Shown here in pieces: positions 1 to 19,381 of a stretch of DNA of 19,381 nucleotides. The DNA comes from a virus. Taxonomy: Duplodnaviria > Heunggongvirae > Uroviricota > Caudoviricetes. Below the pieces are notes generated by a model. That model saw only the letters and a program-made list of their open reading frames with translations, had not been told where the DNA came from and made no database searches. The stretch is taken from positions 1-19,381 of the IMG/VR virus record IMGVR_UViG_2861069343_000003; one strand, 5' to 3'. A program made the translations under genes and the position numbers. How positions within the stretch are numbered: the stretch's first letter is position 1; each line of letters opens with the position of its first letter.

Positions 1-552
1 ATGCATGACAATATTTGGTTTACATATAAAGCACGTATCCAAGCGCACCATCGACTAGAATGGCTTGAAAAACACTCTCAATTTATCCTCGTTTGGTATG
101 CTATATTGAGTGCGGTACTTTCAATTGTAACGTTGCGATTTCCAAAGGTTCTAGGAGATAATACAGATATCGTTGCGGCGATACTTTCAGTGGCTCTACT
201 GGGTATTTCTCTGATCGTATCTAACCTAGATTTTCGTGGTCGAGCAATAGCTATGAGAAGGAATTATATTGCACTACAGCGACTCTATTTTGACATTACC
301 ACCAGTCAACAGTTATCTCTTGAACAGAAAGAAAAATATTTTAATTTGCTCAATGAGGTTGAGAATCACCGTGACATAGATGATAAAATTTCAAGGGTAA
401 CTCAAGTTGGACTTAAGACGAGGATCCCCACACAAAAAGAAAAAATAATTGTTATTTTATGGATATTACTTCGAATATTTATTACTGCCGCACTTTATAT
501 ACTCCCATTAATATATCTTTGGATTGACTATGACTGCAAGCAGAATTTTTAA
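1..552 (+). CDS. SLATT-like multi-TM membrane protein, putative pore-forming effector partner of the downstream reverse transcriptase (possibly 5'-partial, because the ORF begins at the window edge)
   Basis: ATG at position 1; the ORF could continue upstream. The translation shows an N-terminal amphipathic helix IWFTYKARIQAHHRLEWLEK. Two hydrophobic helices follow (aa 27-45 = nt 79-135; aa 56-76 = nt 166-228). A helix FRGRAIAMRRNYIALQRLY comes directly after TM2, and a third hydrophobic segment lies at aa 148-174 (nt 442-522). This layout matches my recollection of SLATT 2TM effector domains. The stop overlaps the RT ATG by 23 nt. The region is very AT-rich. The family call is by eye, not by HMM. 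Confidence 0.65.
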   Translation: MHDNIWFTYKARIQAHHRLEWLEKHSQFILVWYAILSAVLSIVTLRFPKVLGDNTDIVAAILSVALLGISLIVSNLDFRGRAIAMRRNYIALQRLYFDITTSQQLSLEQKEKYFNLLNEVENHRDIDDKISRVTQVGLKTRIPTQKEKIIVILWILLRIFITAALYILPLIYLWIDYDCKQNF

Positions 553-1900
553 AAAGTCATTCTCGAAAAAAAACCTTCTAAAAGTATACTCTGAAAAAAT
601 CAAAGAATCAGGAGCGATTGGCATAGATCGGATTCGCCCATCAAAACTTGATTTGACAATAAAAAATGAGATCACTTTCATTTTTGAAAAGGTTAATTCT
701 GGCAATTACAAATTTACAGCATATAAAGAAAAATTAATATCTAAAGGCGCTAACTCTACACCCAGACAGATTTCCATACCAACTGCTAGGGACAGAATTA
801 CTCTTAGAGCTCTCTGTGAATGCCTTACGGAAATATATCCTAAGTCCAGATTAAAACTACCACATACAGTAATTGACTCATTGAAAGAAGCATTAAACAA
901 CAGTCTATATGCTGAATATGCAAAAATAGATCTTAAAAGTTTCTATCCTTCAATTGAACATAAATTGATAATTAATGCAATAAAAAATAAAATTAGAAAA
1001 AAAGAAATTAGACAGTTAATAACATCATCATTAATCGTGCCTACTGTAAGTGGAACCACAGGAAGCAAAGGTATCCCTAATAATACCAGAGGAGTACCTC
1101 AGGGATTAGCGATATCAAACATTTTAGCTGAAATATCACTATCTAATTTCGATGATGAAATCAATAAAATGCATGACATATGGTACATGCGATACGTTGA
1201 TGACATTCTTATTTTAACACCAAAATATCAAGCAACAAAAATAGCTTCTCATATCATTGATAAGCTTCAATCATTAAATTTAAACCCACATCCATTAAAT
1301 GAAGAGAACTCAAAATCCAAAGTAGGCAGTTTGGATGAAAGTTTTAACTTTTTGGGATACCACATAGAAAATCGAGAATTATTGATAAAACATGAGAGCA
1401 TTCTTAGATTTGAGTCATCCTTAGCAAAAATTTTTACTGCATATAGGCACGCTCTACTACAAGCTAAAAGTAAGCGTGATAAAGAACGAGCTGTTGCATA
1501 TTGTCAGTGGAAACTAAATCTCAGAATTACGGGATGTGTGTTTGAAGGTAAACGATTGGGATGGGTATCGTACTTCTCACAAATAACCTCAACAGCTCAA
1601 CTTCGCTCTGTTAATCATACTATCAATAATCTTATCCGCCGATTCGGCCTTTCATCAGAAATAAAACCAAAATCTTTGATTAAAACTTTCTATGAACTCC
1701 GCAGAGGTAGAGCGGAGACTTTTAAATACATACCTAACTTTGACAATCTACATATATCTCAGAAACGAGAACTTGTTTCTATGTGGATAGGTAAAGAGAA
1801 GGAAAAAAAACTTAGCAATAGTGAAATAGAGAGGAAGTTTAAATTTAAAATTGCGAAATCAGTAAAAGAGCTTGAAGAGGATATTTCAGGAATATCATAG
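530..1900 (+). CDS. stand-alone reverse transcriptase (RNA-directed DNA polymerase) of UG/Abi-like or group-II-like lineage, without retron hallmarks
   Basis: The ORF track starts at TTG 524; the first ATG is at 530, preceded by GGA (521-523). Residue numbers use the track translation. Motifs: RQISIPTARDRITLRAL (81-97, motifs 1-2); AKIDLKSFYPSI (133-144, motif A, Asp136); GVPQGLAISNILAE (190-203, motif B); YMRYVDDILIL (221-231, motif C, with YVDD at nt 1193-1204); FNFLGYHI (274-281, motif 7). A thumb-like LRITGCVFEGKRLGWVSYF follows at 333-351. No endonuclease, nitrilase or long repeat extension is present. Confidence 0.93.
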   Translation: MTASRIFKKSFSKKNLLKVYSEKIKESGAIGIDRIRPSKLDLTIKNEITFIFEKVNSGNYKFTAYKEKLISKGANSTPRQISIPTARDRITLRALCECLTEIYPKSRLKLPHTVIDSLKEALNNSLYAEYAKIDLKSFYPSIEHKLIINAIKNKIRKKEIRQLITSSLIVPTVSGTTGSKGIPNNTRGVPQGLAISNILAEISLSNFDDEINKMHDIWYMRYVDDILILTPKYQATKIASHIIDKLQSLNLNPHPLNEENSKSKVGSLDESFNFLGYHIENRELLIKHESILRFESSLAKIFTAYRHALLQAKSKRDKERAVAYCQWKLNLRITGCVFEGKRLGWVSYFSQITSTAQLRSVNHTINNLIRRFGLSSEIKPKSLIKTFYELRRGRAETFKYIPNFDNLHISQKRELVSMWIGKEKEKKLSNSEIERKFKFKIAKSVKELEEDISGIS

Positions 1901-1963
1901 ATATGTAATCCATTAAGTCATTAAAATATATCGCAATAAACACACTATTTAAACTCACAAACC

Positions 1964-2004
1964 AGCCGCAGTATCCTGCCATGGCAAGTTGCTGCGGCTT
2001 TTTA
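1964..2004. terminator. bidirectional rho-independent terminator between the convergent RT operon and the prophage late genes
   Basis: 8-bp stem AGCCGCAG (1964-1971) pairs with CTGCGGCT (1992-1999), with an inner palindrome TGCCATGGCA. TTTT (2000-2003) follows on the + strand and GGTTTGTGAGTTT follows on the - strand. It coincides with the switch from AT-rich to roughly 50% GC sequence. Confidence 0.7.
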
Positions 2005-2007
2005 TGT

Positions 2008-2301
2008 TCAACGGATCAACAGCCAGATCAGAAGACACGCTACCATCGGCACAGCAAAATCCATCAGGCTTGCCACATCCCATGCGCGTGGATCAAAACC
2101 GCCCCACCACGGCATGTTAATCCGCTTGCCATGCCCGAACATTTCAATCCAGCGATATTATGCTTGGGTGTGTTCGCCCGCAATGAAGAACGTACAACTG
2201 GCTATCGCTCCGTAAACCCAGTTTCCGGTAAAAAGCCCCACCAGTATCTGCGCAGCCACAGCACAAAGTGCATGAAGGAAAGGTGTTATACCCATTTTCA
2301 T
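2008..2301 (-). pseudogene. small hydrophobic prophage membrane protein interrupted by an in-frame TAA (97 codons in total if read through)
   Basis: Hand translation of the - strand from ATG 2301 (or ATG 2295, with AGGA upstream) gives MKMGITPFLHALCAVAAQILVGLFTGNWVYGAIASCTFFIAGEHTQA. A TAA follows at 2158-2160. The same frame then continues YRWIEMFGHGKRINMPWWGGFDPRAWDVASLMDFAVPMVACLLIWLLIR to TGA at 2008-2010. Each half is under 60 aa, so neither appears in the ORF track. The + strand ORF 1981-2313 listed there is the antisense artefact. Confidence 0.55.
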
Positions 2302-15442: not shown

Positions 15443-18049
15443 CTAATCACCCTGTGATGTAAAATAAAACCAATGGTATTCTAGAGCTTGCATAGACAAC
15501 CCAACCTTGTCCCTCAATAGGACACCATTCAGCTCCTGATAGTACCTATCGCGCACCATATCACTTACGTGAATCCTTAAAGTCGCTGGGTCAATAGATA
15601 TTAGATAGTTATCAAAGAGACGATGTATATCAGTACGCAATAACAAGCCATTTTTTATATGATTATCCTTATCTCCTCTGTAAGGATAAATATGAGCTGC
15701 ATCAAGTACTGCTATTGTTTTGCACCCAGTAAAGGCACATTGCCCCCAAACGTTTATCAGTTTATTTCTGAAGTCGCTTTGACCTATACGTATCGTGACG
15801 TTTCTATTTATAACCTTTCGTTCATCAGAGTTATTTATTTTAAAACTCCCTGCTGTTGAAAAATCAAATTTTTCAGTCGCACTAAATATTTTTTTAGATT
15901 GTTTTTTTACTTTTGCAAGCTGTAAATCTGACTTTATTTGTAAGGGTTTTGAGTTTTCTTCATCAAACGATGGAAGTTGAAGTTCTTTAATCATGCTGGT
16001 AGATAGAAAATTTTTGTAACTCATTAACTTAAAATCTAATCCTCGCTCATAACGAATTTTAGAGAGCACTATTGCAGCTTCTTCAATGTATTTAAAACTA
16101 CTTTTCCTTTTATCCCATAATTGAGATAAACAATCTGCATTTAACCTATCATATCTTGATAAAATCTCACCCAAACTGCTGGCTTTAGCGGCGCTATCAT
16201 AGTTTATATACTGTTTTTCTTGGGAATCTTCAATGGAATCCAGAATAAAATTTATATTTACATGATTATCTGCATCTGCATCTGCAGATGCAGATGAATC
16301 ATTAAAATTATCGTAGTCAAGAGAATTTTGATCACTCCAAATAGGTAGCGATAGATAGCAAATATTATCAATGCTGTCGTCCACCAACATTAATTTTTGG
16401 TGGAGTAAAAATAATATAACTGAAGCTTCAAGGTAATTCATTTCTTGTGACAAGAATTTTTCTTTAAGCATATCAAAGTCATATTGTACGTATTCATTTT
16501 TTTTCTTTGATATTACGGAGAGTTGCTCTTCACTTAAGACCACTGGCCTGTCTTCTGATATATTACGAAGTAAGTATGAAATCAATTTTTTTTGATTTTT
16601 TTTAGAATCTTCAGACCTAGGAGGTTCGAGAAACACACCTTCAAGTCTATCCAATGCTTTAAGGCAACTTCCCGCAAGCCTAGTCATCGCATCTTTTCTT
16701 GTTTGAATTAGAGGATCTGCATAGATAACAAAATTATCCCCATTACGAATATGAGCTATTTCAAGCTGATATACATCTAGATTTTTTATAAGTTTAAATA
16801 CAAATCCGTATTTTTGCATTCTATGCAAAGTCAGTGTCGGTATAATATCTTTATTAGATTCTTCATCCAAATTATAGTTTTTTATTCTTTTGTACAACCA
16901 ATTTGTTGCAGAGGAAGAGCAAATTAACTCATTATATTGAATTTTACTATTTTTAGTTATCAGATTTAGAAGAGACATTCCAAACAATGCCTGAATACAA
17001 TCTACATAATAAGATATAGTTGTATAATCTGGATGTCCTTTATAGGGGAGAGAATCTATTGAAATAAAACCTGAGTTATAGAATCTCATAAAGTTTTTTT
17101 CAGATAACACCATGATCCCTAACGTAGTTCTGTCAATAACATTCTGTCCATTTTTTATTATCTCAAGTAGGCTTACTGAAGCTAGTAAGGAAATATAATG
17201 CGAACCTAAAGTAGCGAGATCTCTGTGCGAACTTATAGATCTATTTTTACCCTTTATTCTAGGGGGTATAAAAGCCTGGATTGAATTAAAGTTATTTGAA
17301 AAACCAAAAGCCATGTTCAATTCATTGTTGATGTAACACTCTTTAACATTCGGTTTCTGTACGCCACCCCATGCTGAAATAATACTATTAGATTTTAATA
17401 TTTGTTTTTTATTGTTTTTCAAATTCAAATGATTGCAAACTAAACTGGCAACATTATTCTCTGCTTTTTTTTTACTCTCACCACTTCCGATAAATATCTG
17501 TCCATTAGGAAGTGCTATTTCAGACTCATATATTGGTGCATGCTCGGTCCCACCAGCCAAGGTGGTTTTGTATGTAGGGATTATGTGTTGATGTCTTTGG
17601 AAATATTCATGTAAAAGAGTTTTTGGGGGTTTGCCAACAAATGACTCCGTAATAGAAAGGCTTTCAACAAAAAATTTGAGATGTAATATGATATCACAAT
17701 TAGATATCGCCCCTAGGTAAAATTGAAATATTTGAATTATCATAGAAGATGAGTTGATTTCTTCTTGTTTTACTCCAGGACCAAATTCTGTTTGTTGGTA
17801 GACTTTTGTTAAGGGAAAATTTGTAACAACAAGCTCTCTTAGTTTTTTCTTCAGGCTGCTAGTCATAATGCTTAAATTGTTACCATCCGCACCTTCTATA
17901 CTCAGAGACCGACAAGCGCAGATTAAATCCTCAAGCGACTTACCAACTGATACAGTTGCGTTAAACAATTCAGTATTGCAATTAAAAGATGAACGATGAC
18001 TTATCTGAATATAATTTTCGTTGATATGATTTATGAATAACTTATTCAT
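15443..18049 (-). CDS. large AT-rich cargo protein: two tandem (degenerate RNase III + dsRBD) modules, an unassigned helical/acidic region, and a C-terminal HNH (HNH_2-type) nuclease; candidate anti-phage effector
   Basis: The ORF track starts at GTG 18055 (870 aa; residue numbers below use that numbering). The GTG lies inside the SD GAGGTG (18058-18053), so ATG 18049 (residue 3) is the likelier start. The stop is TAG at 15443-15445. Domain evidence is given in the sub-features. A sigma70-like promoter lies upstream. Confidence 0.9.
   Translation of the reverse strand: [868 protein letters not shown]
15566..15802 (-). other. C-terminal HNH nuclease domain (HNH_2-like)
   Basis: [67 protein letters not shown] follows the pattern R-x-GQ-x-FR...C-x-x-TG...AAHI-x-P...NGL-x-L...H-x-x-FD that I associate with Pfam HNH_2. 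The candidate catalytic triad is H788, N802 and H811. Confidence 0.8.
16643..17233 (-). other. module 2: second degenerate RNase III-like domain (aa ~245-365) plus a divergent dsRBD-like segment (aa ~402-471)
   Basis: Written as this protein / Rnc. [18 protein letters not shown] / [39 protein letters not shown] / [37 protein letters not shown] / [16 protein letters not shown]. E38, E41, D45 and E117 align to R, A, S and Q; only D114 is kept. The dsRBD-like end is [21 protein letters not shown] / [21 protein letters not shown]. This match is weaker than module 1. The sub-feature coordinates begin at the [8 protein letters not shown]-equivalent motif. Confidence 0.5.
17426..17998 (-). other. 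module 1: catalytically degenerate RNase III-like domain (aa ~20-135) plus dsRBD (aa 142-210)
   Basis: By-eye alignment to E. coli Rnc, written as this protein / Rnc. [18 protein letters not shown] / [26 protein letters not shown] / [23 protein letters not shown] / [36 protein letters not shown] / [41 protein letters not shown] / [21 protein letters not shown]. The Rnc acidic residues E38, E41, D45, D114 and E117 align to T, F, V, Q and Q. Confidence 0.7.
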
Positions 18050-18157: not shown

Positions 18158-19381
18158 TCAGTTAGAGTCTGAGTTAGTACAAGTAACAATCGATTCAACT
18201 CTCTCCCACCATGCCTGGTAGGCTTTACGCTGTTCTTCTAGATAATCGCTCTTGTCATAAACTTGCCATACCCCTGGCAGTTTATGACCTAGCATTATTT
18301 CTGCAATATGAGGCGCAGTAAGATCAGAAAAGTTTGTTCGTGCTGTTCGTCTCAAATCATGAAGAGACCAATGAGGAAATTGATACCCCAAACGCCGCCA
18401 TGCGTACTGCATTAAATTGTAAGGCAGCGACTGCAATGATGTCCGACCAACTGGTTCCCTGCTTCCTTCCTTAGTAAAAAGCATATCGGAACCGTTGTTC
18501 ATAGAGATAACGTATTTTATAATCTCTTCAACCGGTTCAATAATGGGCCGCTTTAGCGGTTCGCCTGTTATATCCCCTGTCTTATGTCGTTCTGGTGGTA
18601 CAGTCCATATCTTATTAATGAAATCAAAATCGTCCACCTTGGCAGTAATTAGCTCTGAACTACGGCAACCAAAATGAAGCAATAGTTTAATGAAGGCCCG
18701 GTATTTAGGAACCATTCGAGAACCATCGATCGCAGCATAAAGGATTTTAATTTCATCATGTGTCAGAAACCGTTTCTTCTGACCTTTACGGATATCCATA
18801 TCTTTACCCGTGATATCCGACAGCGGGCGAGTTTCAATGAGCTTTCTCTTATACGCCCAGACATGGGCCTGCTTTGCGTTAATTAGCAATCGGTCTGCTA
18901 TTGCTGGAGTCTTAGTGCTAAGAGGCTCCAGGACTTCTAACCAATCATGCAATGTAGCTGCATCGTTAGGGATATTCCCGATTTTAGAGAACAGGTGCAG
19001 CTCAAACGAGCGGAGTATCTGTTCAGAACCTTTTTTATTTTTTACACAATATGCTTCATACCAGGCACGGATCACAGACTCTACCGTCATGGCTTCAGTA
19101 GCTTTTCGTTTTTCAGCCTGCTTGACCAATCGTGGATTACGGTTTGACTCGAGTTCACCACGGAGACGGATAACTTCTTCTCTGGCCTCTTTTAATCCAG
19201 TTGCCGGGTAAGTTCCGATATCAAGACGCTCACCTTTCCCTGCCCATTGATAACGATATTGGAACACTACGCGACCTTTCGGTGATACTCTGACAGACAA
19301 ACCATCACGATCGGATTTAACCAAAACCTTATCACGTTCCTTTCCAACGACTGAACGCAACCACGCATCAGACAGCGCCAT
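18158..19381 (-). CDS. tyrosine recombinase / phage integrase, P4-type (DUF4102-like N-terminal arm-binding domain)
   Basis: 407 aa, with the ATG exactly at the window edge (19379-19381). The N-terminus MALSDAWLRSVVGK...DGLSVRVSPKGRVVFQYRYQWAGKGERLDIGTYPATGLKEAREE is the typical P4-integrase N-domain. Catalytic signature residues are visible in FGCRSSE (Arg), HDLRRT (His-x-x-Arg), LGH (His) and VYD (Tyr). Confidence 0.95.
   Translation of the reverse strand: MALSDAWLRSVVGKERDKVLVKSDRDGLSVRVSPKGRVVFQYRYQWAGKGERLDIGTYPATGLKEAREEVIRLRGELESNRNPRLVKQAEKRKATEAMTVESVIRAWYEAYCVKNKKGSEQILRSFELHLFSKIGNIPNDAATLHDWLEVLEPLSTKTPAIADRLLINAKQAHVWAYKRKLIETRPLSDITGKDMDIRKGQKKRFLTHDEIKILYAAIDGSRMVPKYRAFIKLLLHFGCRSSELITAKVDDFDFINKIWTVPPERHKTGDITGEPLKRPIIEPVEEIIKYVISMNNGSDMLFTKEGSREPVGRTSLQSLPYNLMQYAWRRLGYQFPHWSLHDLRRTARTNFSDLTAPHIAEIMLGHKLPGVWQVYDKSDYLEEQRKAYQAWWERVESIVTCTNSDSN

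Follow-up and report, generated by a model that had tools for sequence, protein, structure and literature searches.

What kind of reverse transcriptase (RT) is encoded at the start of the viral record IMGVR_UViG_2861069343_000003 (IMG/VR; 19,381 nucleotides, hereafter the window), and where does its template come from? An earlier note on this DNA, made from the sequence alone, observed that the enzyme lacks the hallmarks of retrons, group II introns and diversity-generating retroelements (DGRs), and that the locus offers no visible room for a template RNA. It proposed a template encoded upstream of position 1, embedded in the mRNA of the upstream gene or supplied in trans, or alternatively a protein-primed or template-independent enzyme resembling AbiK. 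Here we conclude, with a probability of about 0.93, that window positions 1-1900 and a non-coding RNA (ncRNA) just upstream form a DRT10 (UG17, Eco3-like) anti-phage defence system, carried as cargo by a defective lambdoid prophage. DRT10, which combines a UG17 RT with a SLATT protein, has been described in preprints from 2025-2026 (Tang 2025, PMC12632851; Sanchez-Nieto 2026, bioRxiv 10.64898/2026.04.29.721553; Ramirez 2026, bioRxiv 10.64898/2026.06.29.735271). It is a tripartite system whose ncRNA, SLATT and RT are all required for phage defence, with an intergenic ncRNA gene directly upstream of SLATT (Tang 2025, PMC12632851). The system in the window is of this already described kind and differs little from its best-studied representative.

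The RT gene (positions 530-1900, plus strand) encodes 456 residues when read from the ATG at 530, on which the residue numbering used here is based; an alternative TTG start at 524 gives 458 residues. Its identity is established by profile searches, in which PADLOC RT_UG17 was matched over positions 1-429 of 429 (1.2e-158, 526 bits), with Drt3a the second-best PADLOC family (2.6e-37), and Pfam RVT_1 was matched as well. NCBIfam models for retron, group II intron, Drt2 and Drt3a enzymes scored far under their cut-offs. Inspection of the protein located QGLAISN at residues 191-197 (motif B, of the noted QGxxxSN form), YVDD at residues 222-225 (codons 1193-1204) and the motif 7 sequence FNFLGYHI at residues 272-279, and found no NAxxH, VTG or IGxxxSQ motif in the RT sequence, in agreement with what the earlier note had read. 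A group II intron, for which flanking ribozyme domains were to be sought, was rejected: Rfam returned no intron match either around the open reading frame (ORF; E up to 1) or in the window (gathering score), and the GIIM maturase model reached 14.5 bits against a 23-bit cut-off, and TIGR04416 / group_II_RT_mat 144 bits against a 300-bit cut-off. A DGR was likewise rejected, motif B being QGLAISN and not IGxxxSQ, and no template/variable repeat pair being present; the only direct repeat of at least 20 nt within 3.1 kb was a 21-nt A-rich chance pair. Motifs, sub-threshold profile scores and the lack of an Rfam match therefore uphold the view that this RT carries none of the three sets of hallmarks.

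Directly upstream lies the gene for a 183-residue SLATT_5 membrane effector (positions 1-552, plus strand; TAA stop at 550-552). As had been noted, it overlaps the RT start, by 23 nt for the ATG at 530 and by 29 nt for the TTG at 524. Its product was matched by PADLOC RTasSLATT (1.3e-56), Pfam SLATT_5 (1.8e-28) and NCBIfam SLATT_5 (9.5e-40), corresponds to the RefSeq entry WP_069914208.1 (SLATT domain protein), and possesses three hydrophobic segments by hydropathy (residues ~27-47, 55-76 and 148-175). An adjoining SLATT_5 effector gene is one of the features that define DRT10, and among 53 related loci recovered by a scan of one genome per species, SLATT was found directly upstream of the RT in 50. 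Downstream, the RT stop codon (TAG, 1898-1900) is followed by 63 nt at 25% GC containing a weak hairpin only, consistent with the short AT-rich gap previously described, and then by an intrinsic terminator of the SLATT-RT operon (positions 1964-2004, plus strand). The terminator consists of a hairpin at 1964-1999 (AGCCGCAG...CTGCGGCT), also detected as a palindrome, which folds with a 10-bp outer stem and inner pairs and is followed by TTTTT (UUUUU in the transcript).

Where, then, is the template? The window opens exactly at the SLATT start codon (position 1), which leaves the RNA gene just in front of it out of view. The window matches several Escherichia coli chromosomes at 100% identity across all 19,381 bases, and we read the upstream sequence from one of these (NZ_CP029108.1, locus L001, where window position 1 is L001 6001). 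In this genome a structured ncRNA of 137 nt is located directly upstream of SLATT at positions -155 to -19 (L001 5846-5982, plus strand), in a 222-nt spacer downstream of a DinI-like gene, as defined by its fold, covariation and a covariance model. The lack of room for a template RNA thus holds for the window and not for the locus, and the suggestion of a template upstream of position 1 proved correct in genomes identical to the window. A sigma-70-like promoter (TTGACT-18-AATAAT, with an extended TG) at -191 to -162 (L001 5810-5839) has its end 7 nt ahead of the ncRNA's predicted 5' end. In the fold of this RNA a GC-rich basal stem (GGGGCAGG/CCUGCCCC) surrounds four stem-loops; its minimum free energy is -57.6 kcal/mol (z = -4.6), and 0 of 200 shuffled sequences folded as well. 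Rfam 15 identified no ncRNA family, retron msr or group II intron around the cassette (E up to 1) or in the whole window (gathering score), and a covariance model built from 29 homologous ncRNAs found no copy of the RNA within the 19.4-kb window (best hit 6.1 bits, E 1.8). The ncRNA of the UG17-A model system from Escherichia sp. E3659 is a separate RNA with transcription of its own (Sanchez-Nieto 2026, bioRxiv 10.64898/2026.04.29.721553), which speaks against the earlier proposals of a template embedded in the mRNA of the upstream gene or supplied in trans.

Closer examination of related loci revealed that this RNA is conserved as a structure. A MAFFT alignment was made of the regions upstream of SLATT in 29 distinct loci, spanning RT identities of 48-100% and comprising E. 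coli alleles, Xenorhabdus, Photorhabdus, Buttiauxella, Bordetella, Noviherbaspirillum, Rhodocyclales, Gallionella and ~18 loci of the Pseudomonas group (Pseudomonas, Stutzerimonas and metagenome-assembled genomes of Pseudomonadaceae). RNAalifold predicted 29 pairs, 20 of which show compensatory double changes. Across the predicted structure 97.0% of cells are paired, compared with 51-59% when the 3' partners were slid by 1-3 columns, and 95 double-change cells were observed versus 9-17 after sliding; none of 500 shuffles reached any of the observed covariation values. Stem-loop 4 was left unresolved by the MAFFT alignment, and its helix is taken from the single-sequence fold. The covariance model recovered the RNA where it was expected, upstream of SLATT, in 36 loci, of which seven lay outside the training set: two further E. 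coli alleles, one sequence duplicate and four others, namely L048 (124 bits) and, at 28-39 bits (scores of 39, 30 and 28), L049, L038 and L036. Among loci whose RT is at most 44% identical (L029-L047) the model missed most, finding L036 and L038 there in addition to L049. These misses are consistent with a published limitation, in that DRT10 ncRNA models work within subtypes only (Sanchez-Nieto 2026).

The presence of a structured RNA upstream of an accessory gene could also be read as a retron whose msr-msd precedes that gene, and many database records indeed name homologues of the enzyme 'retron-type RT'. However, the RT possesses neither VTG nor NAxxH, reaches 58.7 bits against a 235-bit cut-off in the retron model, and has no Rfam msr match nearby. 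Furthermore, the ncRNA termini pair with each other as one basal stem instead of forming a1/a2 repeats that flank an msr-msd, and priming in Eco3 is reported to take place on a protein serine, not on the 2'-OH of a branching G. The search for a conserved structured RNA upstream, which the earlier note had recommended, was therefore successful, but the a1/a2 repeats and branching G by which a retron was to be recognized are lacking, so that the locus is not a retron; we give this explanation the smallest probability of any considered here, close to nil.

The same RNA bears on the idea of a template-independent, protein-primed RT of the AbiK, Abi-P2 or DRT class 1 type that would operate with no dedicated RNA. 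Protein-primed chemistry is common to both kinds of enzyme, and the window by itself shows no RNA. Nevertheless, UG17 is the best-matching family, other high PADLOC matches include DRT3a, DRT2 and DRT9, and no Abi model occurs among the 25 matches listed; an AlphaFold2 model of the 456-residue protein contains no alpha-repeat C-terminal domain; a conserved, covarying ncRNA lies upstream; and the near-identical Eco3 enzyme needs its ncRNA both in vivo and in vitro (Tang 2025, PMC12632851). With DRT10 synthesis templated by its ncRNA, the comparison with AbiK does not hold, and we consider such an enzyme highly improbable at this locus. The other part of the same proposal, protein-primed synthesis, fits DRT10 well and is supported by homology to Eco3DRT10, whose RT uses the serine at its own C-terminus as primer (Tang 2025; Ramirez 2026).

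Returning to the DRT10 assignment, the ncRNA linked to the window carries a template loop of the A-B-A' form. Numbering the RNA such that C107 is the first template base, all published landmarks are in place: U43, G86, G104, U105-U106, C107, C116-U119 (including A117) and A120-U123. Positions -49 to -37 (L001 5952-5964) hold the template C107-C115 (CAACGGUUC) followed by the realignment site C116-U119 (CAAU), and the pattern CAA-CGGUUC-CAA begins 3 nt after stem-loop 5 (SL5). Direct A-A' repeats of at least 4 nt are present in 27 of the 29 aligned template loops, compared with 8 expected; this threshold was used because a limit of 3 nt is passed by 77% of shuffled loops as well. In most loci (U)CAA is kept at both positions.

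Only nucleotides 25, 110 and 112 distinguish the window-linked ncRNA from the Eco3-like allele. The first lies in stem-loop 2, where a G-C replaces a G-U pair, and the other two are template substitutions (C110 for U and G112 for A). The ncRNA of E. coli IHE3034 (L056), by comparison, carries CAAUGAUUC-CAAU, in exact agreement with the template and realignment site published for Eco3, with a cDNA repeat of GAATCATTG. The 2-kb DRT10 cassette was detected in 187 of 5,426 complete genomes, and among these 187 complete E. coli genomes the template CAACGGUUC occurs in 153, including the window lineage, and CAAUGAUUC in 34; counts were obtained by seeded searches each able to match one allele only, and the 187 genomes split exactly between them. 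In Eco3, copying ends at C107, which lies at a fixed distance from SL5 set by an anchor between R371 and G104, leaving U105-U106 as an uncopied linker (Ramirez 2026, bioRxiv 10.64898/2026.06.29.735271). Under this boundary rule, the predicted cDNA of the window allele would be (GAACCGTTG)n in place of the GAATCATTG repeat of Eco3.

Protein features associated with this mechanism are conserved in the window RT. R371, K385, Y388 and S456 are present and, together with YVDD, invariant in 13 homologues down to 59% identity; R371 forms the SL5 anchor in Eco3, and K385 and Y388 touch stem-loop 1 (Ramirez 2026). The C-terminal helix (residues 430-451) and the terminal ...ELEEDISGIS are encoded at positions 1817-1897 (plus strand), as defined from the AlphaFold2 model and the alignment, with the codon of Ser456, the predicted protein-priming residue, at 1895-1897; ELE-DI and the terminal S456 are invariant among the same homologues. 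The model itself shows the helix at 430-451 (mean predicted local distance difference test score 79.8) and comprises a thumb and a short helical C-terminal domain only. A C-terminal serine or tyrosine behind a conserved helix is a defining feature of DRT10; here the serine is present, and its use in priming is predicted. In the cryo-electron microscopy (cryo-EM) structure of Eco3 the corresponding helix fills the path of the nascent cDNA and brings the terminal Ser456 to the active site (Ramirez 2026). The Lys/Glu-rich tail highlighted by the earlier note is present as well (KEKEKKLSNSEIERKFKFKIAK, residues 422-443), but the nucleic-acid-binding role proposed for it does not stand, the helix serving as a priming arm in the Eco3 structure. 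The solved folds nearest to the model are those of group II intron-like RTs (GsI-IIC, G2L4) and DRT9; no deposited DRT10 chain was found by PDB sequence search and Foldseek in the copies searched, where matches were restricted to group II intron-like RTs, DRT9, DRT3a, DRT2, DGR and retron RTs.

The chemistry, cDNA product and defence function proposed for the window system derive from literature on near-identical Eco3DRT10, for which RNA immunoprecipitation sequencing of the ncRNA, protein priming on the C-terminal serine and A-B-A' repeat addition have been reported (Tang 2025, PMC12632851). By homology, two RT monomers would bind one pseudo-symmetric ncRNA, and the RT on loop B would prime DNA on the hydroxyl of its own Ser456, offered to the active site by the C-terminal helix, with the first nucleotide templated by C116. 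The template would then be copied from C115 to C107, synthesis halting at a fixed distance from SL5, after which the nascent 3' end may re-anneal to the downstream CAAU (A') and the cycle repeat. The outcome would be long single-stranded tandem repeats, here (GAACCGTTG)n, which are kilobase-long and protein-linked in the literature. This repeat DNA would be made constitutively, with host ExoI (SbcB) and a phage single-stranded DNA-binding protein (SSB)-like trigger affecting its accumulation or processing; ExoI suppresses toxicity and a phage SSB-like protein is required for activation in the published work (Sanchez-Nieto 2026). The single-stranded repeats are in turn proposed to switch on the SLATT membrane effector, thereby aborting infection. 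Both protein-linked tandem-repeat single-stranded DNA and phage defence have been demonstrated for Eco3DRT10, whose RT is 98.9% identical, and would extend to the window system by homology.

Several points weigh against the DRT10 assignment and its proposed product. The activity proposed for the window allele derives from homology, the ncRNA lies outside the window and its sequence was taken from identical genomes, and publications conflict on whether DRT10 cDNA rises or falls upon infection. The host element is also a decayed prophage, such that activity of the system in situ is assumed. Finally, the two substitutions affect the repeat itself: A (CAAC) and A' (CAAU) agree at three of four positions, so that realignment would use three Watson-Crick pairs and a dG:rU wobble, and through G112 a rival 4-nt repeat arises, GUUC...GUUC with a period of 8 nt. 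With regard to the former, three bases of homology were found sufficient and a U110 substitution was tolerated (Tang 2025, PMC12632851). With regard to the latter, the allele might instead yield an 8-nt repeat, (CGTTGAAC)n, or a mixed and imprecise product, if GUUC (104-107)/GUUC (112-115) were to compete with CAA (107-109)/CAA (116-118). GUUC-AACG-GUUC is indeed the longest direct repeat of the template loop in the window allele, the MS6192 allele and Xenorhabdus, and cryptic re-annealing sites are reported to lower precision in Eco1DRT10. However, geometry fixes the 5' boundary at C107 through the R371-G104 anchor of SL5, leaving U105-U106 uncopied; SL5, the linker and R371 are unchanged in the window system; and the tolerance of the U110 substitution and the retention of (U)CAA at both sites across most loci further favour the 9-nt register. 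We therefore regard the 8-nt or imprecise product as unlikely.

With its truncated tail genes and its pseudogenes, the ~20-kb host element is a remnant, and the cassette might alternatively be a decayed, non-functional DRT10 copy in a dead prophage. Contrary to this, both ORFs are intact, all residues and nucleotides of demonstrated essentiality are conserved, 153 complete genomes contain the same template allele, and the promoter and terminator are intact, which together make a dead copy very unlikely. The prophage, which takes up the whole window, lies between prfC/DinI-like and yjjG, and contains an integrase (18158-19381, minus strand), yfdP/Q/R-like early genes and a truncated tail gene L; its tail end comprises K, I, J, Lom and a 1233-residue tail fibre, and it lacks genes for head and lysis. 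The DRT10 cassette has a GC content of 33.6%, compared with 53.9% for the adjacent tail genes, as would fit defence cargo at the tail-fibre end of a prophage. A search of a phage database returned no near match to the cassette.

Differences among strains were also observed on both sides of the cassette. A small ORF (2008-2295, minus strand), flanked by the DRT10 terminator and the tail-fibre gene, is interrupted by an internal stop and hence a pseudogene in the window, is intact in IHE3034 and HCM-28C-2, and is replaced by a tail fibre assembly gene in MS6192, suggesting that the junction beside the cassette is variable. In E. coli HCM-28C-2 (L058 1003-3000) an insertion upstream of the ncRNA brings in another DinI-like gene together with a capsid-gene fragment and a DUF4760 gene, identifying this region as another variable spot. 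Elsewhere in the prophage, adjoining the integrase, an 868-residue protein annotated as 'HNH endonuclease' (15443-18049, minus strand) comprises a double-stranded-RNA-binding motif (Pfam dsrm; residues 142-208, 2.6e-10) and a C-terminal HNH_2 domain (residues 771-820, 2e-13), the greater part of its length having no domain assignment, and has weak PADLOC HNH matches only; it could represent another defence or cargo gene.

The practical value of identifying the system lies mostly in annotating it correctly. In RefSeq the genes go by no more than 'SLATT domain-containing protein' and 'reverse transcriptase domain-containing protein', while no annotation or Rfam 15 family covers the ncRNA; such loci will consequently keep resembling template-less orphan RTs wherever a window opens at the SLATT gene. 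A more speculative and, in our view, doubtful idea is that the natural template polymorphism (C110/G112 versus U110/A112) is functionally meaningful, with the commoner allele yielding another repeat, GAACCGTTG, by way of an imperfect A/A' match and, through the competing register created by G112, possibly giving mixed 8/9-nt repeats. If true, this would raise the question of whether SLATT activation, SbcB sensitivity or phage-trigger specificity depend on the sequence or precision of the repeat. Given that most E. coli copies carry a template allele other than the one studied, they provide a ready natural variant for testing how far DRT10 immunity tolerates changes in repeat sequence.

Among known systems, the closest is Eco3DRT10, which shares with the window locus the overlapping SLATT-RT operon, the position of the ncRNA, its five-stem-loop fold and its landmark numbering. 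The Eco3DRT10 RT is OKX54664, in which two extra N-terminal residues place the terminal serine at S458 instead of S456 (Tang 2025, PMC12632851); these reflect the same TTG/ATG start ambiguity as in the window RT. Over the 397 residues given in Table S1, OKX54664 has the same sequence as the IHE3034 RT, which differs from that of the window at five positions (S21T, T49A, K105N, N124S and K300R), leaving 451 of 456 residues identical, including YVDD, R371, K385, Y388 and the terminal S456. IHE3034, with its Eco3-like allele, also shares the prophage/prfC neighbourhood of the window. The two systems differ by the three ncRNA substitutions, two of them in the template, in SLATT (98.4% identical), and in frequency, the window allele being the commoner of the two (153 versus 34 complete E. 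coli genomes). The UG17-A DRT10 system of Escherichia sp. E3659 has the same ncRNA-SLATT-RT arrangement with overlapping genes, and also produces tandem-repeat cDNA from a loop bounded by a short direct repeat, under SbcB control and with a phage SSB-like trigger (Sanchez-Nieto 2026, bioRxiv 10.64898/2026.04.29.721553); it differs in possessing its own ncRNA sequence (143 nt, six stem-loops) and a 7-nt AGTAATA repeat, with A/A' being ACU...ACU.

More distantly, the class 2 UG RTs DRT9 (UG28) and DRT2 (UG2) are likewise templated by an ncRNA and produce repetitive cDNA, DRT9 also being protein-primed. However, DRT9 primes on tyrosine, copies a poly-U template into poly-dA and is not paired with a SLATT protein, whereas DRT2 builds a gene by rolling-circle copying of a 120-nt template; profile scores of the window RT for both families fall far under that for UG17. 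Group II intron RTs (GsI-IIC, G2L4) are the closest in solved fold and also sequence relatives, sharing a motif 7 of the xFLGY type, but the window locus has no ribozyme domain match or genuine maturase (GIIM) match. Telomerase (telomerase RT and its telomerase RNA) resembles DRT10 in its short internal RNA template, structured 5' boundary element, 3' alignment segment and processive repeat addition. In contrast to DRT10, it is eukaryotic, extends the 3' end of chromosomal DNA and not a protein serine, and works with no membrane effector; an evolutionary link between the two has been proposed by the authors of the DRT10 studies on phylogenetic grounds.

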